A DNA stretch of 64,000 bases from an uncultured archaeon (lineage in GTDB: Archaea; Thermoplasmatota; Poseidoniia; MGIII; CAYLMJ01): positions 24,221 through 88,220 of the forward strand of contig CAYLMJ010000001.1 in assembly GCA_964384995.1 (NCBI GenBank). The letters are read 5' to 3'. The position numbers and the translations under genes were made by a program. Below, piece by piece: positions 225 through 61,811 of this stretch. The first letter of the stretch is position 1. Every line of letters starts with the position of its first letter. The notes beneath the pieces were generated by a model. The model saw nothing but the letters and a program-made list of their open reading frames with translations, had not been told where the DNA came from and did no database searches.

Positions 225-319
225 CCCTCCAACGAGCCTGCCTTGTTGCCTGCCTTGATGCCTGCCTGGGGCTTGCCTGGGGCTTGCCTTTGCCCTTGCA
301 TGCTCTGTGAAAACTTTCC

Positions 320-429
320 AAAACGTACACCAATCGTGTATCTACCGTTTACCTACCGTGTACCTAGCGTATACAAAACGTATGGAAAACGTATAGCGAA
401 CGTATACCTTTCGTATGGAATTCGTATAT
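320..429. repeat. Phased tandem array, ten 11-bp units, consensus NNNNCGTNTAN
   Basis: Direct reading in exact 11-bp phase: aaaacgtacac caatcgtgtat ctaccgtttac ctaccgtgtac ctagcgtatac aaaacgtatgg aaaacgtatag cgaacgtatac ctttcgtatgg aattcgtatat. Confidence 0.8.
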
Positions 430-434
430 CGAAA

Positions 435-459
435 TGGTCTGGGCCCGGGGATCGAACCC
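435..459 (-). other. tRNA 3'-end-like fragment (T-loop, 3' T-stem, acceptor strand, CCA) with no matching 5' half
   Basis: Minus strand reads GGGTTCGATCCCCGGGCCCAGACCA, a canonical GTTCGATCC T-loop context ending in CCA. The upstream T-stem partner pairs for only 3 bp and no complementary 5' acceptor strand is present. It differs from the 3' end of the tRNA-Gln at 61494..61565. Confidence 0.4.
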
Positions 460-7513: not shown

Positions 7514-7589
7514 TTCACCACAGAGAGCACCGAGAGTTCACAGAGAAATTACTCTGTGATATCTCTGTGTACTCGGTGGCTCTGTGGTT
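7514..7589. repeat. ~76-bp imperfect palindromic element, copy B, between convergent genes (possible bidirectional terminator hairpin)
   Basis: ttcaccacagagagcaccgagagttcacagag ... ctctgtgatatctctgtgtactcggtggctctgtggtt. The arms are imperfect reverse complements. It shares termini and length with 148..224. Confidence 0.65.
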
Positions 7590-7600
7590 TTGCTTGATGC

Positions 7601-17015: not shown

Positions 17016-18308
17016 ATGTACTGCAATCAATGTGAACAGACCGCAAAGGGTGTGGCCTGCACCATCAAGGGCGTTTGCGGCAAGAACGAGGACCTGCAGA
17101 GCCTGCAGGAGACCCTGGTCTATGGACTGAAGGGCATCGCCGCCTATGCCTACCATGCCCGGGAGCTGGGCCAGAGGGATGAGCAGGTGGACGCCTTCAT
17201 GCACGAGGCCCTATTCAAGACCCTCACCAACGTGGACTTCTCACTTGATTCCCACATCCAGACCGCGCTCAAGGCCGGGGAGATGAACCTGCGAACCATG
17301 GAACTGCTGGACCGGGCCAATGTTGAGAACTTCGGCAGTCCCGAGCCGGCCGAGGTACCCACAGGCACCTTCACGGGACCGGGCATCCTGGTCACCGGTC
17401 ACGACCTGCACGACCTTCATGAACTGCTCCTTCAGACCGAGGGCACGGGCATCAACATCTACACCCACGGCGAGATGCTGCCGGCCCACGGCTATCCCAA
17501 GTTGCGTGCCTTCGATCATTTCAAGGGCCATTACGGAGGCGCCTGGCAGCTCCAGAAGCGGGAGTTCGCCGAGTTCATAGGACCCATCCTGGTGACCACC
17601 AACTGCGTCATGCCCCCTTCCGACAGCTACAGGGACCGGGTCTACACCATCGGCATCACCGCCCTGGAAGGAGTCAAGCACATCGAGTCCCGCAAGGACT
17701 ACTCGGCCATCATCGAGGACGCCAAACTGCTGGGCGACATCGGTGAGAACCCCGGCAAGCCCCTGACCACCGGATTCCATCACAACGCCATCCTGGGCCT
17801 GGCCGACAAGATAGTGGAGGCGGTCAAGGCGGGCAAGATCAAACGCTTCTTCCTCATCGGTGGATGCGACGGCGCCAATCCCGGACGCAACTACTACACC
17901 GAGCTGGCCGAGAAGATCCCCGACGATTGCGTCATCCTGACCCTGGCCTGCGGCAAGTTCCGCTTCAACGACCTGGACCTAGACGACATAGACGGCATCC
18001 CAAGGTTGCTCGACATGGGCCAGTGCAACAATGCCTACTCGGCCATCCAGGTGGCCCTGGCCCTGGCCGAGGTCTTCGAGTGCGGGGTCAACGACCTGCC
18101 CCTTTCCATCGTGCTCTCCTGGTTCGAGCAGAAGGCGGTGGCCATCCTGCTGACCCTGCTCCATCTGGGGGTCAAGAATATGCGCATCGGACCCAAGCCT
18201 CCGGCCTTCGTTAGCCCCAACGTTTTCAAGGTGCTCCAGGACAACTACAACCTCCAGCTAATCGGCGACCCCGACAAGGACCTGGAGGCCATGCTGGCAG
18301 GCAACTGA
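17016..18308 (+). CDS. hcp: Hybrid-cluster protein / hydroxylamine reductase (short, class III-size)
   Basis: MYCNQCEQTAKGVACTIKGVCGK N-terminal Cys cluster. GHDLHDL, YTHGEMLPAHGYP, NCVMPP and GGCDG blocks. 430 aa. Confidence 0.95.
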   Translation: MYCNQCEQTAKGVACTIKGVCGKNEDLQSLQETLVYGLKGIAAYAYHARELGQRDEQVDAFMHEALFKTLTNVDFSLDSHIQTALKAGEMNLRTMELLDRANVENFGSPEPAEVPTGTFTGPGILVTGHDLHDLHELLLQTEGTGINIYTHGEMLPAHGYPKLRAFDHFKGHYGGAWQLQKREFAEFIGPILVTTNCVMPPSDSYRDRVYTIGITALEGVKHIESRKDYSAIIEDAKLLGDIGENPGKPLTTGFHHNAILGLADKIVEAVKAGKIKRFFLIGGCDGANPGRNYYTELAEKIPDDCVILTLACGKFRFNDLDLDDIDGIPRLLDMGQCNNAYSAIQVALALAEVFECGVNDLPLSIVLSWFEQKAVAILLTLLHLGVKNMRIGPKPPAFVSPNVFKVLQDNYNLQLIGDPDKDLEAMLAGN

Positions 18309-18434
18309 GACCCCGACCGGACGGCAGGACATTGGGCCACAAACCTCACCATTCTGTGGCACCACCCGATGGAGCCATCGGCTGAAACGGTGGAACACAG
18401 GGCCGGTTTAATATCGGGCCTTCACTGCATCGCC

Positions 18435-19547
18435 ATGGCCAAGGCCAAGCCCAGGAAGAAGCCGGTCGCCAAGAAGACCGGAACCGAATCTGCGATGGGA
18501 CCCGCGCCCGAGCTCACGCTCCAGGCGGTGCGCAAGGAGGCCCTGGCCAAGCTCAAGGGCACCTGCGGGGTCTACAAGGTTTGCGACGGCAATCCCGCGA
18601 GGCTCTGCCAGGGACAGCACTACGGCGGCACCATCGGCATGGGAGGCGTGGGCAAGGGCCTGGCCTTTGCCGCCAACGTGGAGGCCCTGGACAATATCAG
18701 GCTCAAGACCCGGCTGGTCGTCCCCCACGCCGAGCCCGACCTGGGATTGACCTTCCTGGACCGGAAGCTGGACCTGCCGGTAATGGCCAGTTCCACCAGC
18801 GGCATGGGGGCGAGCCTGGGTGGTGCCATGGACGAGAACGAGTACGCCGTGGCGGTCCTGCAGGGCTCGAAGGCGGCGGGCACCCTGGGCTGGCTGGGCA
18901 ACACTCCCGAGGCCGGCCTGGAAGAGGCTGGGGTAAAGGCCCTGCAGGCCGCAGGTCCCGGCATCCCCATCTTCAAGCCCCAGTCCAACCAGCGGCTCAT
19001 CGAGCTCTTCGCCAAGGCCGAGTCGGCCGGTGCCGTGGCCGTGGGGGTGGACCTGGATGGTGTGGGCAGTACCCACTGGGAGCGGGCCGGCAAGCCGGTG
19101 TTCAGGAAGTCGCCTGATGAGCTGGAGGATCTGGTCCAGGCCACCGAGCTGCCATTCATCGCCAAAGGGCTGATGGGTGTCGAGGACGCCCTGGACTGCA
19201 TCGAAGCCGGAGTGGCCGCAATCGACGTCTCCAACCACGGCGGCCGGGCCCTGGAATCCACCCGGGGCGTGGCGGAGGTCCTGCCCGAGATAGCCGAGGC
19301 CGTGGAGGGGCGCTGTGTCATCACCGCCGGCGGTGGCGTGCGCACCGGCTTCGATGTCCTGAAGATGCTGGCCCTGGGGGCCGACGCCGTGCTCGTCGGC
19401 CGGGACATCATCCGAGCGGCGGTGGGAGGGGGCGCCCAGGGAGTCAGGCTCCACTTCGACTACCTGGCCAGTGACCTGCGGCGGGGCATGCTGCTCACCG
19501 GCTCCAACACTTTGTCTGACATCGGTTCCAGGGTCCTGGACCGGTAG
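18435..19547 (+). CDS. FMN-dependent alpha-hydroxy-acid dehydrogenase/oxidase family protein with an N-terminal Cys motif
   Basis: IAKGLMGVEDA, IDVSNHGGRALESTRG, ITAGGGVRTGFDVLKMLALGADAVLVGR. Start placed at ATG 18435, about 24 nt downstream of TATA-like gtttaatatc. The track start is 18369. Confidence 0.8.
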   Translation: MAKAKPRKKPVAKKTGTESAMGPAPELTLQAVRKEALAKLKGTCGVYKVCDGNPARLCQGQHYGGTIGMGGVGKGLAFAANVEALDNIRLKTRLVVPHAEPDLGLTFLDRKLDLPVMASSTSGMGASLGGAMDENEYAVAVLQGSKAAGTLGWLGNTPEAGLEEAGVKALQAAGPGIPIFKPQSNQRLIELFAKAESAGAVAVGVDLDGVGSTHWERAGKPVFRKSPDELEDLVQATELPFIAKGLMGVEDALDCIEAGVAAIDVSNHGGRALESTRGVAEVLPEIAEAVEGRCVITAGGGVRTGFDVLKMLALGADAVLVGRDIIRAAVGGGAQGVRLHFDYLASDLRRGMLLTGSNTLSDIGSRVLDR

Positions 19548-19651
19548 CCGGGATCGCACGTTGGGTGACAGCGCCTCCGGTCTGGTCGATGATTTACTAC
19601 CATTGATTTATATCTCAGGGCCCTGCTGGTTGTTCCATCGAAGGTGACCAG

Positions 19652-20839
19652 ATGGCAGTTGCCGAACTTGCACCCGGAGTCCACTACGTCGGAGCCCGTC
19701 ACTGGGACCGGCGGCTTTTCGACGAGCTCATACCCCTGCCCCAGGGCACCAGCTACAACGCCTATCTCATCCAGGGCAGTGAGGCCACGGCGCTCATTGA
19801 CACAGTGGAACCCGAGCTGGCTCAGGAGCTGATGGACCACCTGGACGAGCTGAAGGTGGCGAAGCTGGATTACGTGGTGGCCAACCATGCCGAGCAGGAC
19901 CACTCAGGGACCCTGCCCCAGGTGCTTGAAAGGTACCCCGAGGCCAAGGTGGTGACCAATCCCAAGTGCAAGACCTTCCTGGAGGACCACCTGCACATCG
20001 ACCCCGAACGCTTCCTCACCAGGGGGGACGGCGAGACCCTCTCGCTGGGCGACCGGACCCTGGAGTTCCTCATAGCCCCCTGGGTCCACTGGCCCGAGAC
20101 CATGCTCACCTACCTGCAGGAGGACCGGATCCTCTTCCCCTGCGACTTCCTTGGCTCTCATCTGGCCACCAGTGACATCTACGCCGACGATGAGGCCACC
20201 GTGTACGAGGCCGCCAAGCGCTACTACGCCGAGATAATGATGCCCTTCCGCCCCAGCATCAAGAAGCACCTGAAGCGGCTGGAAGGATACGACATCGACC
20301 TCATCGCCCCCAGCCATGGTCCCATCCACAGGCGACCCGAGTTCATCCTGGAGGCCTACCGGGAGTGGTCCGGCGATGACCTGGCCAACGTGGTGGTCCT
20401 GCCCTATGTCTCGATGCACGGCAGTACCGGGGTCATGGTCCAGCACCTTGTGGAAGCCCTGATGAAGCGCGGCGTGGGGGTCAAGCCCTTCAATCTGGTC
20501 AAGTCTGACCTGGGTGAGCTGGCCATCGCCCTGGTGGACTGCGCCACCATCGTCCTGGCCTCGCCCACGGTGAGCATCGGACCCCATCCCGCCGCCGCCT
20601 ACGCCGCGGTGCTGGTCAACGTGCTGCGGCCCAGGGCCAAGGTGGCGGCCATCATCGGCTCCTACGGCTGGGGCGGCAAGATGGTGGAGCAGGTGACGGG
20701 CATGCTGGGCAACCTCAGGGTTGAACTGCTGGAGCCGGTGCTGGCCAGGGGTCTGCCCAAGGAGGCCGACCTGGCGGCCCTGGACGAGCTGGCCGATGCC
20801 ATCCTGGCCAAACACCGGGAACTGGGTCTGATCGATTAG
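19652..20839 (+). CDS. fprA: Flavodiiron protein (FprA-type A flavoprotein: metallo-beta-lactamase plus flavodoxin domains)
   Basis: ANHAEQDHSG (HxExDH), VHWPETM, LFPCDFLGSH, IAPSHGP di-iron ligand blocks, and a C-terminal flavodoxin-like region (VVLPYVSMHGST). Confidence 0.9.
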   Translation: MAVAELAPGVHYVGARHWDRRLFDELIPLPQGTSYNAYLIQGSEATALIDTVEPELAQELMDHLDELKVAKLDYVVANHAEQDHSGTLPQVLERYPEAKVVTNPKCKTFLEDHLHIDPERFLTRGDGETLSLGDRTLEFLIAPWVHWPETMLTYLQEDRILFPCDFLGSHLATSDIYADDEATVYEAAKRYYAEIMMPFRPSIKKHLKRLEGYDIDLIAPSHGPIHRRPEFILEAYREWSGDDLANVVVLPYVSMHGSTGVMVQHLVEALMKRGVGVKPFNLVKSDLGELAIALVDCATIVLASPTVSIGPHPAAAYAAVLVNVLRPRAKVAAIIGSYGWGGKMVEQVTGMLGNLRVELLEPVLARGLPKEADLAALDELADAILAKHRELGLID

Positions 20840-20955
20840 GACCGACCATTGCGAGGCCCTGACGGTCATCCTTGCGAGAACGCCGCGGATGAGTGGTGTA
20901 ATATGGAGCATGCAGAGTGGCATCTGATAATCTCGAACATCCACTCGATTAATTT

Positions 20956-21002
20956 GGTGGGCCCCTGGTGTCCCTTCGCCTGTGAACACCATAAGGCCCA
21001 CC
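20956..21002. other. Compound stem-loop GGTGGGCC-cc-TGGTGT ... ACACCA-taa-GGCCCACC
   Basis: 8-bp outer and 6-bp inner perfect stems read directly, in the 245-bp fprA-dfx spacer. Confidence 0.4.
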
Positions 21003-21085
21003 GGGTCGCGGGACCGCGGTGAGGACCATGGTCTGCCACGCAGATAACAGGCAATGACCTTCACGCATTATCGGGAGCTGAAACC

Positions 21086-21469
21086 ATGCCCAAGAGAGCC
21101 GAAGTCTACAAGTGCGAGCTGTGCGGAAACATCGTCGAGGTCCTGACCGTGGGAGGCGGGGAGCTGACCTGCTGTGGAAAGGCCATGACCCTCCAGGCCG
21201 AGAAGGCCGAGGACCAGGGCCAGGAGAAGCATCTGCCGGTCATCGAGAGCACCGACGATGGTGTCACCGTCAACGTGGGTTCCATCGACCACCCCATGAC
21301 CGCCGAGCACTACATCGAGTGGATCGAGGTGGAGACCGTCTCGGGCCAGGTCCACCGGGCCTACCTGACCCCCGAGGACGCGCCTGCCGCCCAGTTCCGC
21401 CTCACCGAAGAAGTTAAACAGGTTCGCTCCTACTGCAACCTTCACGGTCTCTGGAAGAGCACCGTGTAG
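21086..21469 (+). CDS. dfx: Desulfoferrodoxin (2Fe superoxide reductase)
   Basis: Desulforedoxin-like YKCELCGNIVEV ... LTCCG. Centre II ligands EKHLPV, HPMTAEHYIEW, CNLHGLW. Confidence 0.95.
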   Translation: MPKRAEVYKCELCGNIVEVLTVGGGELTCCGKAMTLQAEKAEDQGQEKHLPVIESTDDGVTVNVGSIDHPMTAEHYIEWIEVETVSGQVHRAYLTPEDAPAAQFRLTEEVKQVRSYCNLHGLWKSTV

Positions 21470-21474
21470 AGAGT

Positions 21475-21990
21475 GTGCCCATGCTTAGCGAGAAGATGCA
21501 AGACGCCCTGAACGAGCAAGTGAAATGGGAGTTCTACTCGGCCTACATGTACCTCTCCATGGCCTCCTACTTCGAGTCGGTGAGCCTGGGAGGTTGCGCC
21601 AAGTGGATGTACGCCCAGTTCCAGGAGGAGCAGATGCACGCCATGAAGATGTTCCGCTACGTCAACGAGCGGGGCGGGCGGGCCCTCCTCAGGCAGATCG
21701 AGGAGCCACCCTCCCAGTGGGACTCGCCCCTGGCCGCCTTCCAGGAGACCTGCGAGCACGAGGCCCTGGTGACCGGACGCATCAACGACCTGATGGACCT
21801 GGCCCTGGACGAGCGTGACCACGCCACCGCAAACTTCCTGAACTGGTACGTGGACGAGCAGGTGGAGGAGGAGGACAACTGCGGCGGCATCCTGGAGCGG
21901 ATGAAGCTGGCCGGCGAGGGCGCCGGGCTCTTCATGCTGGACCAGGAGCTGGGCCAGCGGGTCTTCACCCCGCCCCCGGAAGAGGCCTGA
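21475..21990 (+). CDS. Ferritin
   Basis: Ferroxidase-centre pattern WEFYSAYMY, FQEEQMHAMK, CEHEALV, NWYVDEQVEEE. 171 aa. Confidence 0.9.
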   Translation: MPMLSEKMQDALNEQVKWEFYSAYMYLSMASYFESVSLGGCAKWMYAQFQEEQMHAMKMFRYVNERGGRALLRQIEEPPSQWDSPLAAFQETCEHEALVTGRINDLMDLALDERDHATANFLNWYVDEQVEEEDNCGGILERMKLAGEGAGLFMLDQELGQRVFTPPPEEA

Positions 21991-22190
21991 AGGGGACGGG
22001 ACCTCCCTTCAAACTCCCCCAACTGAAGATAATCACCGTGGACCGCCCCGGGACAGGGGCATTCACAGAGGCACCGGCCGAGGGTCAACGACCCCGGGTG
22101 TCAAGCCCGGACCAAGGTCCTGGACCGATCCGCCAATCGCAACCGCGATCACGATCGTGATCAAAGCCAAGCTGACAGGATAACAGACAG

Positions 22191-24290
22191 GTGAACTATA
22201 TGGCTTTCAAGGACGTTATCGAAAAAGAGCCCCGCCGGGCCTACATGCTCACCAACGAGGCCATTGTACGTGCGGCCCTGGAGGCCGACGTCAAGGTGGT
22301 CTCCTTCTACCCCGGCGCGCCCCAGACCGAGATCATGGACACCTTCGACAGGGCCCTGGCCCACTTCGACTACCGGATGGAGGTGGCGGCCAACGAGAAG
22401 GTGGCCCTGGAGACCGTGGCCGGAGCCGCCATGGTGGGCCAGCGGTCCCTCACTTCCATGAAGAGCGTGGGCACCAACGTGGCCGCCGACGCCCTCTACT
22501 CCCTGGCCTACACCGGGGTGAAGGGGGGCTGTGTTTGCTGCATCGCCGACGACCCCTACGCCCACTCCTCCCAGTCGGAGCAGGACGGCCGCTGGTTCGG
22601 CAGTACCTCCTACCTGCCCATGCTGGAGCCCTCGGACCCGGTGGAGGCGGCTGATATGGTCAAGGCCTCCTTCGACCTTTCGGAAAAGTACGAGAGCCTG
22701 GTGCTGTTGAGGACCACCACCAGGGTCAACCACCAGAGCGGCGTGGTCCAGCTGAATCCCATTACGCGGACGCCTTTCGAGAAACTGTCGTGGGTGGAGA
22801 ACCGCCGCAAGTACGTCACCCTGGGCGCCATCGCCCGGGCCGGCAAGGAGCGAGTGCTGGAGAAGATGGAGCGCATCCGCAATGAGGTGGACCTGGCCCG
22901 GTTCAACCGGGTGGAGCACTTCGACGGCCAGGAGCTGGTGATCGGGAAGGAGGCCGCGGCCAAGACCTGCAAGGTGGGGATCATCACCGCCGGGGTGGGT
23001 TACAGCTACGCCCTGGAGAGCCTGATGAGGCTGGGTGCTGCGGCCAAGATGTTGAAGATAGGTGTGCTGAACCCCCTTCCAGAGGATGTCATCTCGACCT
23101 TCCTGGGCACCGTGGACCAGGTGGTGGTGGTGGAGGAGCTGTCGCCCTACATCGAGAACACGGTGACGGCCCTGGCCAAGGATGCGAATCCCGCCTGCGA
23201 GATAATCGGCAAGCGGTCGGGTCACTTCTCCGAGGCCCTGGAGTACAACATCCCAATCGTCATCGGGGTCCTGGCCCAGGTCACGGGGAAGGAACTGCCC
23301 TTCGACCATCAGGCCCATTCGGAAAAGCTGATGAAGCTGGCCGAGAGCCTGCCCCAGCGCCTGCCGGTATTCTGTGCCGGCTGTCCCCACCGGGCCACCT
23401 TCTGGTCGGTGCGGCGGGCCCTGCGCAAGCCCGATTCCGTCTTCTTTGCCAACGACATCGGCTGTTACTCCATGCTCAGCCTGGAGCCCATCGACTGGAC
23501 CGACTCCCTGCTCTGCATGGGCTCGTCCATGGGCGTGGCCGCCGGGGTCCAGCACAGCGCCCAGGAGAGGGCCATCGTGGCCCTGGGCGACTCCACCTTC
23601 TTCCACGCCGCCCTGCCTGGTGTGGTCAACGCGGTCCACAACCAGGACGACATGACGCTGATCATCCTTCACAACTCGGTGACCGCCATGACCGGGCAAC
23701 AGACCCATCCGGCCCATCCCCACCGAGCGGGGGGCATGCCCGGCGAACAGTTGGATATCGGAGCGGTGCTGGAGGGGCTGGGCGTGGGCAAGATCGTCCA
23801 CATCGATTCCTACGCCGATGTCAAGGCCAACATCAAGGCCTGCAAGGAGGCCCTGGACCACGAGGGGGTCTCGGCCATCATCTCCCATGGCGAGTGCGCC
23901 CTCTACCACTTCCGCAACTACCGCCACGCCGGCGGCAAGCTGGTGCCCTTCTTCGTGGACAAGGACATCTGCCGCAAGGCCTACACCTGCATCCGGGACT
24001 TCATGTGCCCGGCCATCTCCATCGATCCTTCGGACGGCAAGGCCCAGATCGCCCCCGAGCTCTGCGTGGGCTGCGGGGTGTGTTCCCAGCTCTGCGGCTG
24101 GAAGGCCATCAAGTCCACAGCCACCCTGCAGGGAGGCGAGAACAAGGCCTACATGGAGCTGGAAGACTACCATGAACTGCAGAAGGTGATCCAGGGGAAA
24201 GGCAAGGGCAAGGACAATGGCAATGGCAAGAGCAAGAGCAAGGGTAAAAGCAAAGGCAAGGGCTCTGCCAAGAAGGGAGGTGATGCCTGA
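22191..24290 (+). CDS. iorA: Indolepyruvate:ferredoxin oxidoreductase alpha subunit with a C-terminal Lys/Gly-rich tail
   Basis: TPP-binding GDSTFFHAALPG, two ferredoxin-type Cys clusters (CIRDFMCPAI, CVGCGVCSQLC), and tail GKGKGKDNGNGKSKSKGKSKGKGSAKKGG. GTG 22191 or ATG 22200 is the start. Confidence 0.9.
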   Translation: MNYMAFKDVIEKEPRRAYMLTNEAIVRAALEADVKVVSFYPGAPQTEIMDTFDRALAHFDYRMEVAANEKVALETVAGAAMVGQRSLTSMKSVGTNVAADALYSLAYTGVKGGCVCCIADDPYAHSSQSEQDGRWFGSTSYLPMLEPSDPVEAADMVKASFDLSEKYESLVLLRTTTRVNHQSGVVQLNPITRTPFEKLSWVENRRKYVTLGAIARAGKERVLEKMERIRNEVDLARFNRVEHFDGQELVIGKEAAAKTCKVGIITAGVGYSYALESLMRLGAAAKMLKIGVLNPLPEDVISTFLGTVDQVVVVEELSPYIENTVTALAKDANPACEIIGKRSGHFSEALEYNIPIVIGVLAQVTGKELPFDHQAHSEKLMKLAESLPQRLPVFCAGCPHRATFWSVRRALRKPDSVFFANDIGCYSMLSLEPIDWTDSLLCMGSSMGVAAGVQHSAQERAIVALGDSTFFHAALPGVVNAVHNQDDMTLIILHNSVTAMTGQQTHPAHPHRAGGMPGEQLDIGAVLEGLGVGKIVHIDSYADVKANIKACKEALDHEGVSAIISHGECALYHFRNYRHAGGKLVPFFVDKDICRKAYTCIRDFMCPAISIDPSDGKAQIAPELCVGCGVCSQLCGWKAIKSTATLQGGENKAYMELEDYHELQKVIQGKGKGKDNGNGKSKSKGKSKGKGSAKKGGDA

Positions 24291-24910
24291 TGACCGGTGA
24301 CACCTTCGACCTCATCGCCTGCGGCGTGGGCGGCCAGGGAGTGGTGCTGATGTGCAACGCGGTGGGGGAGGCCTGCGCCCTGGCGGACATGAAGGCCATA
24401 TCGGGTGAGATGCATGGCCTGGCCCAGCGCAGTGGTTCGGTGTTCATCCACCAGCGGATAGGCGAGCGGGCCCTGGCGCCTCTTGTACCGTACGGGGAGG
24501 CCGATGTCATCCTGGCCCTGGAGCCCATGGAGGCCCTGCGGCATCTCCACTACCTGGCCCCCGGCGGCCTGGTCATCACCAACACCCATCTGGTCCATCC
24601 CCCGGGGGAGACCAACGCCCTGGCCACCAAGCAGGCCGAGGGCTACATCGAGTACGACACCGTCATGTCCACCATCAGGGAGGCGGGGGCCAGGGTCATC
24701 GAGATCGACGCCCTGGAGCTGGCCAACCGGGCCGGCAACGCCCTGACCGAGAACGTGGTGATGGTGGGCGCCCTGGCCGCCTCGGCCGGCTTCCCGGTGG
24801 CCAAGGAGGCCATGCTGGAAGGGGTCAAGGCCATCGTGCCGCCCAAGGCCGTGGCGGTGAACGAGAAGGCCTTCGAGAGCGGGTACGCCGCCTGCCGCAA
24901 AGCCCAATGA
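24290..24910 (+). CDS. iorB: Indolepyruvate:ferredoxin oxidoreductase beta subunit
   Basis: ATGA overlap with the iorA stop. [11 protein letters not shown] ... [10 protein letters not shown] ... [12 protein letters not shown] pattern. Confidence 0.9.
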
Positions 24911-24965
24911 TATTAGTACCGCCCCCGCTTGGCATCCTCAACCCAATCCATTGGGAGACCTGAAC

Positions 24966-25127
24966 ATGGACAAGTACATCTGCAACGTCTGCGGCTACGA
25001 GTACGACCCGGCACAGGGCGACCCCGACGGGAACGTGGACCCGGGCACCGCCTTCGAGAACATTCCCGACGACTGGGTCTGCCCCATCTGCGGCGTGGGC
25101 AAGGGCGAGTTCGAGAAGATGGATTGA
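24966..25127 (+). CDS. Rubredoxin (53 aa; too short for the ORF track)
   Basis: Own translation: [53 protein letters not shown], with the canonical CxxCG ... CPxCG pairs. Confidence 0.9.
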
Positions 25128-25138
25128 GGGCCCACAGG

Positions 25139-25224
25139 CGTCCCATTTGCCCCATTCGTCCTATTCGTCCCATCGTTCCATCAGTGCTATCCCTCCCATA
25201 GTTCCCTTCGTCCCATCGTTCCAC
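25139..25224. repeat. Drifting short tandem repeat (about 9-bp units: cccatttgc cccattcgt cctattcgt cccatcgtt ...)
   Basis: Read directly downstream of the rubredoxin gene. Its reverse complement shares words (ggatagg, gaatggg) with 27983-28010. Confidence 0.6.
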
Positions 25225-25481
25225 AAGGCCAAGCGGCCCCATCCTGCCCCCCTCCGCCATCTCTGCCTGGCCCGCCTGCTGCTATTGATGGATGCGGGGT
25301 TCCGATGGGATGGTGAAAGCGAATTCTGGCTACAGTGGCGAGGGTCCTCCCCAACACCCAGACCCAGGACGGGTAGACAGGGGCCGCCACGCCATGTCCA
25401 GGCGGGATGTATTTTTTTTCCACCTTCAGCTTTATTATGGCCCAAAAACTCCCAGTAGTCAAGGTCCAAGGGTTCGACCGG

Positions 25482-25784
25482 ATGTTGGCCGAGCCTCAAG
25501 GGGACCAGAACAGTACCAATTCAAAGCTGGTGAACCAACTGCTCCAGAACCTGATACCCGACGCCGAGCTCGATTGCATAGGCCTCTACTGCCCCATGCC
25601 CATGGCCATGACCAAGATGGAGATGGACAAGCTGAAGACCGGACAGGTGCTGATGGTGGAGGCCGACGACCCGGCCTCGGAGAAGGACATCACCGGCTGG
25701 GCCGACAAGGTGGGCCACGAGGTCGTGAGCCTGGAGCGGGAGGACACCATCCTCATCTTCCACATCCGCAAGGGAGGGTCCTGA
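25482..25784 (+). CDS. tusA: TusA/SirA-like sulfurtransferase
   Basis: LDCIGLYCPMPMAMTK (CPxP active-site motif) ... GQVLMVEADDPAS ... DITGWA. Start chosen at ATG 25482, downstream of TATA-like tttattat (25427-25434). The track start is 25407. Confidence 0.8.
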   Translation: MLAEPQGDQNSTNSKLVNQLLQNLIPDAELDCIGLYCPMPMAMTKMEMDKLKTGQVLMVEADDPASEKDITGWADKVGHEVVSLEREDTILIFHIRKGGS

Positions 25785-25786
25785 AG

Positions 25787-26989
25787 ATGGCCAAGGCCGG
25801 CGAGCGGGTCTACATGGACCACATCTCGGCCATGCCTGTGGACCCCAGGGTGGTGGACTTCGCCAGACCCTACCTGGAACAGGGCCATGGCAACCCCTCC
25901 TCCCTGCATCGCGTGGGCCAGGCGGCCAAGGGGGCCATCCAGGAGGCCAGGCAGAGGGTGGCCGACCTGATCAACGCCGAGAGTGCGGACACCATCATCT
26001 TCACCGGCGGGGCCACCGAGGCCAACAACCTGGCCATCCGGGGTACCGCCTCCCGCAACGCCCGCAAGGGCAAGCGGGTCGTATCCAGCGCCATCGAGCA
26101 CATGTCGGTGCTCAACCCCATGAAGGAGCTCCAGAAAGGGGGCTTCGAGTACGAGCGGGCCGGCGTCGACGAGCACGGTCTCGTGGACCTGGATGAGCTG
26201 GGCCGTCTGGTGACGAAGGAGACCACCGTCACCTCCCTCATGTACGCCAACAACGAGATAGGGACCCTGCAACCCATCGGCGAGGTGGCCGACATCGTTC
26301 ATGAGCAGGGTCACTTCCTCCACGTGGACGGCACCGCCGCCGCCGGACGGGTGCCCATCGACGTGCAAGCCGAGAACATCGACCTGCTGACCCTCTCGTC
26401 CAACGACCTCTACGGTCCCCAGGGCGTGGGCGCGCTCTACATCCGCCCCCGGCTGAGGCTCCAGACGGTGATGCCCGGTGGTGGCCAGGAGCGGGGCTTC
26501 CGCTCGGGCACCGAGAACCTGTTTGGCATTGCCGCCATGGGCGAGGCCGCCCGCCTTGCCTCCGCTGAGATGGAGAGCGAGAGCCAGCGGCTGAAGGGAC
26601 TGCGGGACGAACTGATATCGGGCATCCTGAAGATGGACGAGACCTACCTGACGGGCCATCCCGAGCGTCGTCTGCCCCATCATGCCAGCTTCCGCTTCGC
26701 CTACATCGAGGGCGAGAGCCTGCTGATGAACATGGACATGTACGACATCCAGGTGACCACCGGCTCGGCCTGCTCATCCAAGACCCTGGAGCCCTCCCAC
26801 GTACTGCTGGCAATCGGGCTCTCCCACGAGCAGGCCCACGGCTCGATGATCCTGTCACTGGGCCATTCCAACACCGAGGACCAGGTGCCCCGGGTGGTGA
26901 AAGCGACGGGGGAGTCGCTGGAACGCCTGCGAGCGCTGTCACCCCTTTACAATCCAAGACCTGACGACCCATCGAAGAGGACGGAGTAG
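25787..26989 (+). CDS. iscS: IscS/NifS-family protein lacking the PLP-binding lysine
   Basis: Collinear with class I cysteine desulfurases (SAIEHMSV, HVDGTAAAG, GGGQERGFRSGTEN, TTGSACSS). The SGHK motif is SSND (Asp207). ATG 25787 is in frame with track ORF 25292..26989. Confidence 0.9.
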   Translation: MAKAGERVYMDHISAMPVDPRVVDFARPYLEQGHGNPSSLHRVGQAAKGAIQEARQRVADLINAESADTIIFTGGATEANNLAIRGTASRNARKGKRVVSSAIEHMSVLNPMKELQKGGFEYERAGVDEHGLVDLDELGRLVTKETTVTSLMYANNEIGTLQPIGEVADIVHEQGHFLHVDGTAAAGRVPIDVQAENIDLLTLSSNDLYGPQGVGALYIRPRLRLQTVMPGGGQERGFRSGTENLFGIAAMGEAARLASAEMESESQRLKGLRDELISGILKMDETYLTGHPERRLPHHASFRFAYIEGESLLMNMDMYDIQVTTGSACSSKTLEPSHVLLAIGLSHEQAHGSMILSLGHSNTEDQVPRVVKATGESLERLRALSPLYNPRPDDPSKRTE

Positions 26990-26995
26990 ACACCC

Positions 26996-27484
26996 ATGGA
27001 CGACCAAGCGTACACCGAGCAAGTGATGGACCATTTCATGAAGCCCCGCAACGTGGGCACCCTGGACGACCCCGACGGCTACGGCAAGGTGGGCAACCCG
27101 GTCTGCGGCGACATGATGGAGATGTTCCTCAAAGTGAACGCCGAGGACGAGACCATCAGCGACATCCGCTTTCGGACCTTCGGATGCTGTTCGGCCATAG
27201 CGACGACCTCCATGGCCACCGAGATGGCAAAGGGCATGACCCTGGACGAGGCGCTGGACATCACCCGGGACGACGTGGCCGGGGAGCTGGGAGGCCTGCC
27301 GCCCAAGAAGATGCACTGCTCCAACCTGGCCGCCGACGCCTTGACCGCCGCCATCGAGGACTATCGGGCCAAGCAGAACGGCCGGGCCCCGGACCCAGAG
27401 GTCACCGAGGTAAACTCCTGCTGTTCCACCGTCCAGCGCTGTGAGCACATGGTCGAGGACTTCAAGGCCAAGCAGGAAGGATAG
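26996..27484 (+). CDS. iscU: IscU/NifU-type Fe-S cluster scaffold
   Basis: GNPVCGDMM, FRTFGCCSAIA, KKMHCSNLAADAL ligand blocks. C-terminal extension carries extra Cys residues (CCSTVQRC). Confidence 0.9.
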   Translation: MDDQAYTEQVMDHFMKPRNVGTLDDPDGYGKVGNPVCGDMMEMFLKVNAEDETISDIRFRTFGCCSAIATTSMATEMAKGMTLDEALDITRDDVAGELGGLPPKKMHCSNLAADALTAAIEDYRAKQNGRAPDPEVTEVNSCCSTVQRCEHMVEDFKAKQEG

Positions 27485-27740
27485 CCGAACACCCAATCGC
27501 CTCCTCCTGCCGCAAGCCGCCGGTGTTCCACATAAAATGAGATAACTTCTTATTCGAGCACGCGGTAATTATCATCAGATGAAGGAAGCCCGCGAGCCAG
27601 CCAGCGACCGGGGACCCGCGACCCTGGGTCCGGCCGCCGGAGCCCGCCCCGCGGCCCCAAAAAGGCCCAGCTGTGCCTGCCCGCCAGATAGTTCCGGGGA
27701 CCCCTGGCAGGGAATGGCGTCCAGTACGGGAGACCCGCAG

Positions 27741-28037
27741 ACAACTCGGAGACATCTCGGAGATAACTCGGAGATAACTCGAAGACAACTCGAAGCCACC
27801 TCGAAGCTACCTCGAAGCTTCTACGAACGATATACGAAGGAGTTACGAACGAGTACCGAAGGAGTAGCGAAGGTTGAATATAGCGGTACTATGGCGGTAC
27901 TTTAGCGGTACTTTAGGGGTACTATGGCGGCAATATAGGATCGATATAGAATTGATATACAATTGATACAGCCGGAATACAGGACGGATAGGGAATGGGT
28001 ATGGGGCGAGTCTCGGGAGAGTAGACAGGAGACACGA
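27741..28037. repeat. Phased tandem array of 27 consecutive 11-bp units that drift progressively in sequence
   Basis: Exact 11-bp register from 27741: acaactcggag acatctcggag ataactcggag ataactcgaag acaactcgaag ccacctcgaag ctacctcgaag cttctacgaac gatatacgaag gagttacgaac gagtaccgaag gagtagcgaag gttgaatatag cggtactatgg cggtactttag cggtactttag gggtactatgg cggcaatatag gatcgatatag aattgatatac aattgatacag ccggaatacag gacggataggg aatgggtatgg ggcgagtctcg ggagagtagac aggagacacga. Confidence 0.85.
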
Positions 28038-28098
28038 GCTATTCTCACCTGAGTTATGCTTTTTATCCTAAACCAGCATCAGGGTCATTGGAATCGAT

Positions 28099-31000
28099 AT
28101 GGCGGGCGCTCATACAACCCTGAGATGGATGCGGCTTGGCATCGTGATGTTCGGGACAGTCATCCTGTTACTGCTATGGGCAGGAGGAGAAGCCGAAGCT
28201 CAAGTGGACTACTCGATGGCCGTCGAGCACGACAGGATAAGGCTGTTGGAGAACGGGACCGGCGAGTCGAACCAGACCCTCTACCTTACCAACTTCTGCG
28301 CCCACACACTCACCATCGAATTAACGGTGGAACATGGGTCCCCAGTGGTCAATGTGACCCCCGTGGTGAGAACTGTGACACTGGGGTCTGGTGGTGATGG
28401 ACAGTACAATTATTCTATCGAATCCGAGAACGCGAATATCTCCAATGTTGAGGTGATCATCAACGGCAGGGTGACCCATGTCGATGGCGCAACCTCACCG
28501 GAACCGTACGAGCGCAGCGATACTTTCATTGTGCGAAAGCCTGCCAGTTTCGATTCTGATGGTTCACCCCTCATCTACTCAACATACGTGGGTGGCGAAG
28601 ACCGCGATCGAGGTTACAGCATGGCCGTCGATGATGATGGTTATGTCTATGTTACCGGTTATACCCGTTCAGCTGATTTCCCCATCACTGAAGGTGCCTT
28701 CAATGACACATTGAACGGATACCGGGACGTTTATGTTGCGAAACTGAGTCCCGACGGTTCGGATTTGATCTACTCCACATATGTAGGTGGGAGTAGTTAC
28801 GATGATATTGGTTCGGGAATTTGTGTCGATAATGAAGGAAGCGTTTACGTGGCAGGTTATACCGCTTCCGATGATTTTCCCACAACCCCAGGAGCGTACG
28901 ATAGGGAATACAACGGTGGTGAGGTGGACGGTTTCATATTCAAGCTTAGTCCCGATGGTTCAACTCTGGAGTACTCAACTTATATTGGTGGGAGTGCAAT
29001 TGATGGCATTCGGGATATTGCGATTGATAACAACAAGAACGTGACCGTGATCGGTATCACCAATTCCACGAACTTCCCAACCTCCACAACGGCAAAGGAC
29101 AGGTCTCACAACGGTCTCTTTGATGCCTTCGTCCTCAGGTTATCCGATAAAGGAACACAGCTCATGGCCTCCACATACCTAGGGGGCACGAATAATGACG
29201 AAGCTTATGCGATTGCACTTGACGACGATGGTCATGCATATGTGACAGGATACACAGAGTCTACAAACTTTCCGAAAACGAACGGGGTCTTTGACAGGAC
29301 CCACAACGGAGAGACCGACATCTTTGTTACCAAGGTCTCTCATAGTGGTACAACATTTCAATATTCAACCTTTGTGGGGGGTACGTATTGGGAGGAAGCA
29401 TACGATATCGTTCTGGACGATGAGGAATATGCCTATGTGACAGGCTTCACGGATTCCTACGATTTCCCCACTACTGATGGAGCATACAACCGATCCAAGA
29501 ATGGATGGTGGGAAGACATGTTCGTTTTCCAATTGAGTCCTTCGGGAACCTATCTCAAGTTCTCGACATACATTGGTGGGGAGGACGAAGATTACGGAAT
29601 GTCATTGGATGTGGATGTGGATGGCTCCGTTTACGCAGTTGGGCGTACATCTTCCAGGGACTTCCCCACCACTCCGGACACGTACAACCAGAGCACAGGC
29701 GGCAACATCATCCTTTTCATGCTAAAAGAGAATGGTACAGAGTTGGCATATTCATCAGCATTGGGTGGTTGGGAGGTGACTTATGTCTATGACATCGTCC
29801 ACTCGGGCAACGGCAACTGCTATGTCACGGGCTACACCTATTCCGGTTTCCCGGTTACGGATGGTGCCTATGATGAGACTCACAATATGGATAGTGACAT
29901 CTATGTCTTCAAGATGAAAGTGACCATCAACACTCCACTTATCGCCTCCATAAGATCCATATCACCGGCAGCTCCCAACGTGGGAGATGCGGTCAGCTTC
30001 AACGGCTCTGGTGAGGATTCCGACGGCTATATCACGGCCTATCAATGGCACTCGTCCATAGACGGCAACCTCAGCACCAATGTTTCGTTCACCACATCAA
30101 CACTCTCTCCTGGTGAGCACCTCATCACGTTCAGGGTCATGGACAATCGTAGTTACTGGTCAGAGAATGTCAGTCAGCTCCTCAATGTGAACCTCGTACC
30201 AACAGCTCACATTCAGTTGATGACCCCCGCCTACCAGCTCCAGGGCAAGACGGTCTATTTCAGAGGCTCAGGCAACGACACCGATGGTTCGGTGGAGGGC
30301 TACCAATGGGTCTCCAGCATCGATGGGACCATTTCCTCCAAGATGACCTTCAGCAAAACGACCCTCTCCAACGGAACCCACACCATCTCCTTCCGGGTCC
30401 AGGACGATGATGGTGCCTGGTCCTCCTGGGCCAATGCCTCCCTGAATATCCTGAATCCCGGAGAGGCTCCACCGGTGGCATCGATCATCTCCATCACCCC
30501 CACCTCTCTCAAAGCGGGTGAGCTGGTCAGCTTTCAGGGCAAGGGCGTCCACGCCTACTGGAATGTCACCCACTTTGCCTGGCATTCTGACATTCAGGGT
30601 TCGCTGGATCGGAACGAGACGTTCCATACCGATGAGCTGGTCCCCGGGACCCATACCATCAGCTTCAAGGTCACCGACGAGATGGGCGAGGAATCTGTGG
30701 AAGCGACCGCCATCGTGGTGGTGAGAGCGCCTGAAGGACAGGAGGACGATGACGACGGTCTGCCCCTCTTCCTCATCATCGGCGTCGTGGTCGTCCTCGT
30801 CGGTGCGGTGGGTGGATTCATGGCCTACAAGCAGAGACAGGGCGGGACTCCCGCGGTTCCAGCAGGCAAGGCCCAAGCCCCAGCAGCCAAAGCTCCTGCG
30901 CCAGCACCAGCACCAGCACCACCTTCTCCAGAAGCCGCCTACCAGCCTCCAGCAAAGGCTCCGGCTCCCGAACCTCAGAAGCCTCCTGCGCCAGAGACCG

Positions 31001-31110
31001 TCACGATCCAGTGTCCAAGCTGTCAGGGACGGATGAGGATACCGAAACTGGGCAGGCTTCAGCAGATCAAGTGTGAGGCGTGTGGATTGGAAGGTGAGTT
31101 GGAGGTCTAG
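28099..31110 (+). CDS. Surface protein: signal/anchor, SBBP-type beta-propeller repeats, three PKD-like domains, TM helix, Pro/Ala linker, C-terminal zinc ribbon
   Basis: Seven repeats of the form YSTY(V/I/L)GG ... D ... A(V/I)D ... G ... YVTGYT ... DFPTT.GA. Three repeats of GSG.D.DG ... Y.W.SSIDG. TM helix LFLIIGVVVVLVGAVGGFMAY. APAPAPAP linker. IQCPSCQGRMRIP ... IKCEACG. Confidence 0.85.
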   Translation: MAGAHTTLRWMRLGIVMFGTVILLLLWAGGEAEAQVDYSMAVEHDRIRLLENGTGESNQTLYLTNFCAHTLTIELTVEHGSPVVNVTPVVRTVTLGSGGDGQYNYSIESENANISNVEVIINGRVTHVDGATSPEPYERSDTFIVRKPASFDSDGSPLIYSTYVGGEDRDRGYSMAVDDDGYVYVTGYTRSADFPITEGAFNDTLNGYRDVYVAKLSPDGSDLIYSTYVGGSSYDDIGSGICVDNEGSVYVAGYTASDDFPTTPGAYDREYNGGEVDGFIFKLSPDGSTLEYSTYIGGSAIDGIRDIAIDNNKNVTVIGITNSTNFPTSTTAKDRSHNGLFDAFVLRLSDKGTQLMASTYLGGTNNDEAYAIALDDDGHAYVTGYTESTNFPKTNGVFDRTHNGETDIFVTKVSHSGTTFQYSTFVGGTYWEEAYDIVLDDEEYAYVTGFTDSYDFPTTDGAYNRSKNGWWEDMFVFQLSPSGTYLKFSTYIGGEDEDYGMSLDVDVDGSVYAVGRTSSRDFPTTPDTYNQSTGGNIILFMLKENGTELAYSSALGGWEVTYVYDIVHSGNGNCYVTGYTYSGFPVTDGAYDETHNMDSDIYVFKMKVTINTPLIASIRSISPAAPNVGDAVSFNGSGEDSDGYITAYQWHSSIDGNLSTNVSFTTSTLSPGEHLITFRVMDNRSYWSENVSQLLNVNLVPTAHIQLMTPAYQLQGKTVYFRGSGNDTDGSVEGYQWVSSIDGTISSKMTFSKTTLSNGTHTISFRVQDDDGAWSSWANASLNILNPGEAPPVASIISITPTSLKAGELVSFQGKGVHAYWNVTHFAWHSDIQGSLDRNETFHTDELVPGTHTISFKVTDEMGEESVEATAIVVVRAPEGQEDDDDGLPLFLIIGVVVVLVGAVGGFMAYKQRQGGTPAVPAGKAQAPAAKAPAPAPAPAPPSPEAAYQPPAKAPAPEPQKPPAPETVTIQCPSCQGRMRIPKLGRLQQIKCEACGLEGELEV

Positions 31111-31160
31111 TCTCTAACTTGAACGTTCGACGCCTCGGCCCCACCTGACAACACTAAAAC

Positions 31161-31284
31161 CGAGATGGTGGAACCAAACAGCCTGTGGATGGCCGGACGC
31201 CTAACCGTGGAACCTACCAGCCTGATGGCGGCCTGTCGCCAGCCTATCTCAGACCTGGCCCCTAACCGTGGAACCAGCCGGTGG
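31161..31284. repeat. Three degenerate copies of a GTGGAACC-containing unit; the last copy is the 3' end of CDS 31262..31546
   Basis: gatggtggaaccaaacagcctgtggatgg (31164-), ctaaccgtggaacctaccagcctgatggcgg (31201-), ctaaccgtggaaccagccggtgg (31262-). Confidence 0.55.
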
Positions 31285-37750: not shown

Positions 37751-37883
37751 CCGAACATCCCGCACACCGAACATTCCCCGCACCGGACATCGCCTGGCAC
37801 AGCACTGGTCAACCCCTGACTCTGGGCCGATCATATCCTGACTCTGCGCTGGTGATATCCCCATCCCCCATCCGATGACATCC
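37751..37883. repeat. Drifting tandem repeats (3 x 16 bp, 2 x 22 bp, 2 x 7 bp)
   Basis: ccgaacatcccgcaca ccgaacattccccgca ccggacatcgcctggca. Then cctgactctgggccgatcatat cctgactctgcgctggtgatat. Then ccccatc ccccatc. Confidence 0.55.
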
Positions 37884-60229: not shown

Positions 60230-60459
60230 GGGGCTCAACGAGGCGCCGCATCGACGGGGGGTTTAAAAAGCTTCCCAACGACCTTTTCTGAGAAAAGGTC
60301 GAACAAAAGAGGTTGACCCCCCGCTCGCTACGCTCGCGGGAGGTCCATGGTCAGTGATGGTTATAGATATTGGATGGTCGAGGGAAGACCCATCTGGATG
60401 AGGTGCCGGTCGAATGAGAGGACGAGCGTGTGGACCCAAAAAGAGAGTAGAGAAGCAAT

Positions 60460-60580
60460 AAGCCAGTACTTTATCAGTACTTTACCAGCACTATGGCAGT
60501 AGTATAGGATCAGTATAGCCGGAGTATAGAATGAGTATAGCGGGAGTATAGAGAGATTCTCAATTTAGTATGCAAGATGT
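60460..60580. repeat. Phased tandem array, eleven 11-bp units, partly collinear with 27895..27949
   Basis: aagccagtact ttatcagtact ttaccagcact atggcagtagt ataggatcagt atagccggagt atagaatgagt atagcgggagt atagagagatt ctcaatttagt atgcaagatgt. Weaker periodic words continue to about 60700. Confidence 0.8.
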
Positions 60581-60736
60581 GGACCCCGAGTGCCCCGGTC
60601 GGACCGAACTGTCGGGTCGGAACTGGCGGTGAGGAAGCGTCACAGAAGGCTAAGCGTTACAGAAGTCGGTCGATGATGGGAGGGAGAGGAGCGGTGTTAC
60701 TGAGGGGCAGGGATTTGTGATAATACCGAGGCGGTT

Positions 60737-61267: not shown

Positions 61268-61493
61268 CAGTATTTTATTGTTAGGTTCTTATTTAATGAT
61301 GTTGTTGACGAATCAACCTACTTACTTACTAATCCGATGAGCGTTGTCCGGTGGACAGACGCCCGTTCCAGAACCCAGCCTCTTTGTGACAGATAACAAT
61401 CACCAAGGCCCCATCGCGAGGCTCGCTTGCGAGTCGAGTCGATGGGGCATTATTCTTCCCTATGAGCTTTATCCCGAAGGGAGAAAGAGAAGG

Positions 61494-61565: not shown

Positions 61566-61640
61566 ACGCCGCGTCGATGAGCCCTCGGGTTTTAGCGTTT
61601 ATGGTCCCGAATGTCCCAGCTGGAGGTTTATTCACACAAC

Positions 61641-61757
61641 CAGGCAGGGGAGGCATTGAGGAGGAGGCACTGTAGATGAGGCTCCAAGGAGAGGCATGGA
61701 AGAGGAGGCGAAGGAAGCAGGGGAGGCAACGGAGGCACAGGAGGCAAGGGAGGCGAA
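61641..61757. repeat. Purine-rich GGAGGC(A) drifting repeat (about 9-11-bp units)
   Basis: caggcaggggaggcattgaggaggaggcac ... ggaggcaac ggaggcaca ggaggcaag ggaggcgaa. The track ORF 61676..62134 is its translation. Confidence 0.55.
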
Positions 61758-61811
61758 TATGCTTCGATGGTCATGAACAATCGTTAAGTAGACTCCAATC
61801 TCCTTCCGCCC

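Follow-up and report, generated by a model that had tools for sequence, protein, structure and literature searches.

The parC centromere of plasmid R1 consists of ten near-identical 11-bp direct iterons that are bound by ParR and lie beside parM and parR on the plasmid, and the bacterial PHO boxes are sets of two to eight 11-bp direct-repeat units of one consensus, bound head-to-tail by PhoB or PhoP of the OmpR family. Satellite and minisatellite DNA with higher-order repeats and concerted evolution is usually eukaryotic and far longer. BrickBuilt, a minisatellite-bearing MITE (miniature inverted-repeat transposable element) found in Porphyromonas gingivalis, has a 23-nt unit, a conserved leader and tail, inverted-repeat ends and 19 copies (PMC4596501), while the tandem repeats of the Borgs of Methanoperedens are perfect and A-rich, come in many unit lengths and differ at every locus, with polymerase slippage as their thought origin (PMC9879509). 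The 10-11-bp periodicity of curved prokaryotic DNA with phased A-tracts is a weak statistical signal of A/T runs over kilobases, often found upstream of promoters (PMC3372288). Here we analyze a drifting tandem array of 11-bp units, array 2, in a 64,000-nucleotide stretch of DNA from an uncultured archaeon (Thermoplasmatota; Poseidoniia; MGIII; CAYLMJ01; GenBank assembly GCA_964384995.1, contig CAYLMJ010000001.1, positions 24,221 to 88,220 of the forward strand). This whole stretch is called the window, and positions are counted from its first letter. A preliminary description had named no described archaeal element of this kind, and limited searches of open-access text likewise found no such archaeal arrays.

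Array 2 is a non-coding, degenerate minisatellite in which the 11.0-bp unit length is the only property strictly kept, and is one member of a small family, with three arrays in about 91 kb; both statements are largely established by the following observations. The units of array 2 are joined head-to-tail without spacer under one dominant period, as in minisatellites. Identity at lag 11 is 0.709, compared with 0.261 +/- 0.026 in 5000 shuffles (z = 17), while the other lags between 5 and 17 range over 0.20-0.27. In no 22-nt sub-window of the array is a lag other than 11 favored, and the register thus never slips. This autocorrelation against shuffled controls, which the preliminary description had proposed, bears out the unbroken 11-bp register claimed there over 26 of its 27 units; the last (28027-28037) mismatches unit 26 at 9/11 positions, which puts the end of the array at 28026, 72 nt short of the ATG at 28099.

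When the array is cut every 11 bp from 27741, neighboring units differ at 0-7 positions (mean 3.2), compared with 8-10 differences per step in the flanks cut in the same phase. The mean distance rises from 3.2 between neighbors to 5.4 for units four apart and about 7.5 for those eight or more apart, in agreement with the continuous drift described earlier, and Tandem Repeats Finder (TRF) returns a chain of overlapping period-11 arrays with differing consensus units. The first two blocks of the array (a and b) together contain nine CGAA words spaced at 11 bp. A GC-rich periodic extension that had been traced upstream to about 27585 was not recovered, the segment 27585-27740 having no period-11 signal (0.27, with 0.32 expected from composition).

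The array itself is supported by the assemblies. The whole intergenic region from IscU to the ATG is base-for-base identical in at least 10 independently assembled contigs (ENA, JGI and Logan assemblies, from several samples), and five short contigs terminate inside array 2, as expected of a repeat. As these contigs are 99.99-100 % identical over many kb, they represent one clone and are uninformative on unit-number polymorphism. No gene is called at array 2 in any assembly. An overlapping open reading frame at 27579-27905 was rejected as coding sequence for want of a Pfam match and of codon-position GC asymmetry, the values in the array region being flat (0.70/0.77/0.74, compared with about 0.68/0.44/0.85 in real genes of the window). 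A structured RNA element was likewise rejected, since the fold of array 2 is scarcely better than that of shuffles (z = -1.9) and an Rfam search of the window matches the tRNA-Gln only.

Of the periods not divisible by three, 11 alone forms long arrays in the window, at three loci (Table 1). Array 3 is a collinear paralog of the second half of array 2, with the unit types in the same order. Their ungapped alignment is 63 % identical over 122 nt in one unique in-phase placement (54 % at the next-best 11-bp shift), a value that shuffled unit orders of array 3 attain in 1 of 2000 trials. The gapped path, which passes through GAGTAG(C/A)GAAG, two copies of GTACTTTA, ACTATGG, TATAG-GATC and a shared ATTCTCA..AGT(T)ATGC flank, scores 51, compared with a maximum of 33 for mononucleotide shuffles. 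BLAST within the window aligns the two arrays at 79 % over 53 nt (E = 4e-7), and finds that their homology ends at the array borders, with none in the flanks. The common order of unit types indicates that the drift "trajectory" was inherited, and not produced separately at each site.

Table 1. Positions of the arrays and associated features in the window.
Feature	Position	Strand	Description
Array 1, GC-rich part	236..290	+	GCCTGCCTTG-type units of 11/12 bp
Array 1, AT-rich part	324..433	+	10 units CGTRTAY / CGTATRS plus variable 4-nt spacer; 33-bp higher order
3.8-kb segment	27485..31267	+	array 2 and 1003-aa gene; missing from relative A
Spacer	27485..27740	+	left end of insertion; AT-rich patch, then 75 % GC stretch; non-periodic, non-coding
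Array 2	27741..28026	+	26 units, each exactly 11 bp; non-coding; GC 0.48
Block a of array 2	27741..27817	+	7 units NNNNCTCGRAG
Block b of array 2	27818..27872	+	5 units NNNNTACGAAS / CCGAAG / GCGAAG; 22-bp higher order
Block c of array 2	27873..27938	+	6 units, mainly SGGTACTWTRG (family D7)
Block d of array 2	27939..28026	+	8 units, drift GATCGATATAG -> GGTATGG -> GAGTAGAC
TATA box, likely	28060..28067	+	TTTTTATC; 32-39 nt before ATG, 34 bp past end of array 2
Surface-protein gene	28099..31110	+	1003 aa: signal peptide, SBBP propeller, 3 PKD domains, C-terminal transmembrane helix
1.1-kb segment	60264..61398		array 3 and 176-aa secreted-protein gene (GC3 0.31); from 54-aa gene to 3' flank of tRNA-Gln; missing from relative B
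Array 3	60445..60573	+	about 11 units of 11 bp; collinear with array 2 from unit GAGTAGCGAAG (27862) onward; 22-bp higher order

Array 1 was rejected as a relative of array 2, to which it offers an 11-nt exact match alone, not above shuffles, and the proteins that neighbor arrays 1 and 3 have no homology to each other. A hairpin element, and not an 11-bp array, makes up the left part of "array 1" (126-225), which was therefore rejected. Two long imperfect hairpins of CACAGAG / CTCTGTG words occur in the window, at 150-225 (merged by TRF with "array 1") and at 7516-7590, with RNA fold z of -4.5 and -6.5; one lies upstream of a thiolase operon and the other between convergent ABC-permease and SOD genes, and they look like a palindromic repeat family of the repetitive extragenic palindromic or MITE kind.

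No more arrays are present in about 10 kb of extension to the left of the window and about 7 kb to the right, and neither about 54 kb from two relatives nor 862 kb flanking unrelated bacterial loci, which served as controls, contain a period-11 array. With none in relatives or controls, the density of three arrays per 91 kb or so is thus a property of this genome or genome region. Of the equivalents for which the preliminary description had suggested a search, two were found in about 91 kb of the genome and none in the sequence from the relatives. Scans of public collections (GTATRS x4 in genome contigs, GTACTWTR x3 in metagenome contigs) gave, among the matches listed, unrelated bacterial or eukaryote-like 11-bp repeats, and period-11 tandem repeats of many sequences are common among these matches from public genomes and metagenomes. 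The array 2 intergenic region has no BLAST match in plasmid or phage collections, and a viral candidate with the motif common to arrays 2 and 3 was dismissed as one chance match inside a phage tail-fiber gene.

An origin of array 2 as a minisatellite that grows or shrinks in steps of whole units and 22/33-bp blocks, mutating between events, is reasonably well supported. TRF detects higher-order repeats at 22 and 33 bp among the arrays, and the gaps in the well-aligned center of the array 2/array 3 alignment measure 22 and 11 nt; together, these block sizes and length differences suggest growth by whole-unit slippage or unequal exchange. Turnover would proceed through gain or loss of whole units or 22-/33-bp blocks (by replication slippage or unequal exchange) together with point mutation, a combination that would leave neighbors alike, distant units unrelated and the register intact. 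Under the same reading, array 2 is carried within recently inserted or rearranged DNA, or is generated there.

The surroundings of the arrays bear on this last point. The organism is recognized as an uncultivated euryarchaeon by an archaeal-type tRNA-Gln, a class I LysRS and a TrmB/V4R regulator, and by its closest named homologs, which are proteins of Methanomassiliicoccales and of Thermoplasmata metagenome-assembled genomes (53-63 % identity). Upstream of array 2 are IscS and IscU, and downstream is the surface-protein gene, whose membrane-anchored SBBP/PKD product also has a cytoplasmic Pro/Ala-rich tail and a CxxC...CxxC motif. This gene had been described as low in GC, which is correct: its GC is 0.53 compared with 0.62 for the window, and its GC3 is 0.60 compared with 0.83-0.90 for housekeeping genes. 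In one relative (relative A), IscU (83 % identical) is followed after 103 bp by a 94-aa gene and then by a 715-aa gene and UvrC, and the short gap identifies 27485-31267 as a 3.8-kb indel. In another (relative B), 145 bp separate the 54-aa gene from the tRNA-Gln block that follows it, which identifies 60264-61398 as a 1.1-kb indel. Arrays 2 and 3 are therefore each located at the left edge of a lineage-specific insertion of foreign composition with a low-GC gene for a secreted or surface protein, and array 1 lies beside a synteny breakpoint. A recombination boundary, one of several roles proposed in the preliminary description, has in this way gained unexpected support, arrays 2 and 3 being at the edges of DNA missing from close relatives.

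Several other features were observed around these junctions. At the right junction of the 3.8-kb insertion (31168-31275), a word containing GTGGAACC occurs three times, in two cases as CCTAACCGTGGAACC, each time repeating the 3' end of the 94-aa gene; relative A also carries two copies, and they may be a recurrent recombination site or terminator. At the site of the array 3 insertion, relative A has an IS200/IS605 transposase element, and past the tRNA-Gln a second indel relative to relative B (61608-64000 onward, to about 64938 in L262 coordinates) contains two SAM-methyltransferase genes and a 475-aa gene. This second indel and the element of relative A at the same site mark the tRNA-Gln neighborhood as an insertion hot spot. 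The 54-aa gene beside array 3 is highly conserved, with 92-94 % DNA identity in relatives. On the minus strand, a near-perfect hairpin at 60300-60327 (CGACCTTTTC...GAAAAGGTCG) is followed by a T-rich run and then by TTTTTAAA (60262-60269), 24-33 nt before the 54-aa gene, likely a terminator plus promoter pair. One nucleotide from the last unit of array 1, a 24-nt fragment (GGTTCGATCCCCGGGCCCAGACCA, 435-458, minus strand; unique in the window) resembles the T-arm and acceptor 3' end of a tRNA; a 169-aa gene and a 395-aa gene with weak matches to the primase small subunit are nearby, and the area may be left over from an integrated element. Neither the tRNA-Gln end nor the tRNA-like 24-mer was found in a second copy, and att duplication was rejected.

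Beneath the drift of array 2, change is distributed along the unit as 11, 10, 10, 10, 6, 7, 1, 5, 6, 7 and 7 changes at positions 1-11, and position 7 is altered just once, from C to T. A pyrimidine-purine step occupies positions 7-8 in 23/26 units (as CG throughout units 1-12 and as TA in 11 units among 13-26), compared with at most 11 units at any other phase. Because pyrimidine-purine steps are flexible, constraint on the step is conceivable, and its retention at this phase could reflect it. In the five best-aligned units of arrays 2 and 3, positions 7-10 differ at 0/20 sites and the other positions at 12/35, counts that are not independent because the recurrent CGG/CAG difference between the two arrays is the product of concerted evolution. 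In array 1, CGT is invariant in 10/10 units and CGTAT in the last six, followed by four variable bases, and in array 3, AGTATAG is invariant in five units while the adjoining 4-nt spacers differ. A conserved core with a variable spacer every 11 bp, a feature of OmpR/PhoB-type sites, is thus present in array 1 (CGTATRS), array 3 (AGTATAG) and array 2 (NNNNCTCGRAG).

The octamer TTTTTATC at 28060-28067 is likely the TATA box of the surface-protein gene, and several other genes of the window bear TATA-like words 23-45 nt before their ATG. Array 2 spans roughly -35 to -320 relative to this putative box, which is the position of an upstream element and not of a ladder of promoters. In a wedge model, the curvature of array 2 averages 20 deg per 32 bp, compared with 12.8 for the window, with a peak at 27956 that is the fourth highest in 64 kb, and the ratio of end-to-end to contour length is 0.75, compared with 0.91 in shuffles. 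Array 2 is without phased A4 or T4 runs; AAAA units are present in array 1 only, where the A-tract unit alone stands out in bend.

Survival of the period, of the fixed-phase pyrimidine-purine step and of short cores through the drift makes action on duplex DNA, as a platform on one face of the helix, the most likely mode. We infer that array 2 may be a helically phased, one-face platform just upstream of the promoter of a newly acquired gene, which would bend easily or bind an architectural protein cooperatively, and put the probability of this reading at about 0.4. Over its length of about 290 bp, the platform could consist of DNA that is anisotropically bendable or curved, could serve as a lattice on which an abundant architectural protein binds cooperatively, or could do both, and from its place 34 bp upstream of the probable TATA box it could tune or insulate the acquired gene. 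A multi-site protein platform, as proposed in the preliminary description, is compatible with the cores, the variable spacers and the 23/26 pyrimidine-purine steps, but a cognate protein was not found.

A number of observations weigh against such a platform. The unevenness of change along the unit is not significant (chi-square p = 0.31), and the passage from CG to TA takes transitions only, so that common descent alone can explain the retained step. The bends of individual units, 5-12 deg, are ordinary when compared with random tandem 11-mers (mean 10.3), which would make the predicted curvature a generic consequence of 11-bp phasing and not the work of special units; the Bolshoy-Trifonov parameters of the wedge model were, moreover, provisional. 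The intrinsically curved DNA that had been suggested thus stands as above-average model curvature, but of a generic kind. The arrays have no consistent orientation or distance to neighboring genes, array 2 lying upstream of its plus-strand cargo gene and array 3 facing the 3' end of its minus-strand one, and a terminator-like hairpin intervenes between array 3 and the 54-aa gene. An array as a regular part of the surface-protein gene family was considered and rejected, as the closest homologs in relatives (60 % and 54 %) sit in operons without arrays. Finally, the sample is small, consisting of three arrays and two relatives.

Many of the same observations would be expected if the arrays were neutral by-products, that is, functionless minisatellites in non-coding, recently rearranged DNA whose 11 bp comes from a mutational mechanism (a preferred slippage or flap length) and not from selection. 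Higher-order duplications and whole-unit indels, a rate of change not significantly non-uniform along the unit, inconsistent gene orientation, orthologous sites in relatives without arrays, ordinary per-unit bends and the frequency of period-11 repeats among the listed public matches all speak for it. We nevertheless regard it as somewhat unlikely, given three loci with at least six unrelated unit types that are all of 11 bp (or 11/12), the lack of long arrays of other non-triplet periods in the window, paralogs about 35 % diverged that both keep the register and a T-W-T-R core, and invariant cores beside fully variable spacers in arrays 1 and 3. Those cores would suit a sequence-specific operator or iteron lattice, in which the blocks are rows of sites for a dimeric protein polymerizing on one face of the helix, with different blocks serving different proteins or affinities. 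Models are provided by ParR bound to the 11-bp iterons of R1 parC, by omega bound to heptads and by PhoP/PhoB bound to 11-bp direct-repeat units, and the core-plus-spacer architecture is joined by short palindromic cores at 11-bp spacing (GTAC, GTATAC and TCGA), by a GTATRS core common to the non-collinear arrays 1 and 3 and by the nine phased CGAA words. Such a lattice is unlikely, however, as no ribbon-helix-helix, ParR, ParM or OmpR-type gene lies beside any array, the core itself drifts, 26 sites go well beyond known operators, and the window has no MsvR-type TTCG-N8-CGAA box.

The positions at insertion edges raise the alternative of a mobile-element remnant, the arrays being subterminal or arm-type recombinase sites left at one end of an insertion. 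Arrays 2 and 3 are paralogous and both at left edges, the insertion with array 3 abuts the 3' flank of tRNA-Gln where relative A has its IS200/IS605 element, and array 1 ends 1 nt from the tRNA 3'-half-like fragment, near the gene with weak primase matches. Yet the three segments have no integrase or transposase, no matching array or inverted repeat at the opposite end, no direct repeat of the tRNA-Gln end and no flank homology between insertions beyond the arrays; known arm-site sets comprise 2-7 sites; and nothing similar was found in plasmid and phage collections, with a chance match alone in viral contigs. We hold this origin to be quite improbable. Most improbable of all is that the array offers a ladder of alternative TATA boxes, or a promoter in which slippage would bring about phase variation of the surface protein; the preliminary description had entertained both. 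AT-rich words (TATAG, TTTAG, ATATA) do stand in phase in units 13-24 upstream of a surface-protein gene, but array 2 has a single match to TTTAWATA with at most one mismatch (27952-27959), and the better-placed word lies outside the array, which weakens the ladder reading and leaves the slippage-prone promoter unsupported. Gain or loss of whole units would not alter the spacing from TATA box to start, no gene lies downstream of the paralogous array 3 on the same strand, and no length variants occur among the contigs, which are all of one clone.

A bolder reading extends the platform of array 2 to the whole family. The arrays, as composites phased at strictly 11.0 bp that pass on their order of unit types between loci, would be dedicated architecture elements that mark the borders of newly acquired low-GC surface-protein cassettes. 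A chromatin or silencing protein would nucleate on them as a one-face filament, in an archaeal equivalent of xenogeneic silencing or insulation, or else they would be a recombination-active end for cassette capture; we consider this distinctly unlikely. If the phase is under selection, the arrays would be a natural archaeal case in which function lies in the helical register and not in the sequence. They would then offer a simple way to learn how DNA shape is read by archaeal chromatin or architectural proteins, and how newly acquired surface-protein genes come to be wired in or kept silent. With two paralogs at insertion edges and a third array at a synteny breakpoint, they are candidates for markers, or agents, of the plasticity of the genome in this uncultivated lineage, which comes from methanogenic enrichments. 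Neutral arrays would still point to a strong preference for 11 bp as the slippage length in the replication or repair machinery of this organism. A practical warning follows for short-read assemblies, which break inside such arrays.

Elsewhere in the window, a dense oxidative-stress and Fe-S cluster (17016-27484) encodes hybrid-cluster protein, FMN dehydrogenase, flavodiiron protein, desulfoferrodoxin, ferritin-like protein, 2-oxoacid:ferredoxin oxidoreductase, rubredoxin, TusA, IscS and IscU. A TrmB-HTH/V4R regulator with an MsvR-like C-terminus is encoded at 15120-16460 on the minus strand, and 12971-14158 has a match to the selenoprotein-type sulfide:quinone reductase family. The nearby regulator and the TACGAA words of the array suggested MsvR-type boxes, none of which was found in the window. 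Short intergenic tandem repeats at 37751-37873 (16-bp x2.6, 22-bp x2.1, 7-bp x2) lie upstream of a gene starting at 37925.

Period-11 repeats of other kinds were noticed in the public collections. Drifting intergenic arrays at five loci (L011, L032, L049, L052, L079), from Bacteroidales, Sediminicola, Pedobacter and Sphingobacteriaceae, indicate that register-locked drifting arrays occur in Bacteroidota too; the first of these drifts from CAAGTTTTTCT through CATAGTGTAGC to GTATGGCATCA. An 11-bp direct-repeat set of GTATGGCAAGC (x4-5) is lineage-wide in many genera of Rhodobacteraceae (within L015-L082), with several loci per genome in Puniceibacterium, while GTATGGATAGT recurs in Flavobacterium (L014/L021/L038/L070) and GTATGGGGAGT (x8-11) in Chitinophaga (L041/L054/L063). 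These three sets, conserved across their lineages and in a few cases adjoining tRNA genes, look like candidate operator or iteron sets. A short array of ATACTTTAGCA GTACTTTAACG GTACTTTACCG GTACTTTAGGA ACACTTTAACG, with inverted CTTTTAAAGTG / ACTAAAGT flanks and a conserved ACTTTA core, occurs in more than 10 freshwater metagenome contigs (L142, L148, L165, L172, L180, L190, L216, L220, L229, L246, L252).

Array 2 resembles each of the described systems in part. Like parC, it places head-to-tail 11-bp units in promoter-proximal DNA, and in parC the sites on one helical face support a cooperative lattice; unlike parC, it is chromosomal and has 26 drifting units, with a divergence of about 7.5/11 within eight units, and the genes neighboring the arrays include no centromere-binding protein or partition NTPase in Pfam, NCBIfam or PHROG. 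The CGTATRS and AGTATAG blocks share with PHO boxes a 6-7-bp conserved core and a 4-5-bp variable spacer per 11 bp, whereas the consensus of array 2 changes along its 26 units, and no winged-helix response regulator is present among the window proteins scanned. BrickBuilt is likewise a multicopy, strictly intergenic tandem array at variable genome sites, and can carry promoter activity (PMC4596501); the present arrays differ in having no terminal inverted repeats or shared flanks, an 11-nt unit, strong drift and just two related copies seen. The Borg repeats are also archaeal, fast-evolving, locus-specific and partly intergenic (PMC9879509), but the present arrays are degenerate and fixed at 11 bp, with a unit order common to two loci. 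With curved DNA the arrays share a helical-repeat phasing that gives additive bending, though they are a literal tandem repeat in which A-tracts are confined to a few units of array 1.

The closest likeness in behavior is to satellites, in the gradient of neighbor similarity, the 22/33-bp higher order, the whole-unit indels and the variants shared by adjacent units (CGG versus CAG in arrays 2 and 3). What is unusual, in contrast to satellites, is that several loci of a compact archaeal genome keep a unit of one helical turn in unit sequences that are unrelated. Array 2 is best described as a minisatellite of an unusual, fast-evolving and helically phased kind, for which a neutral explanation is credible.

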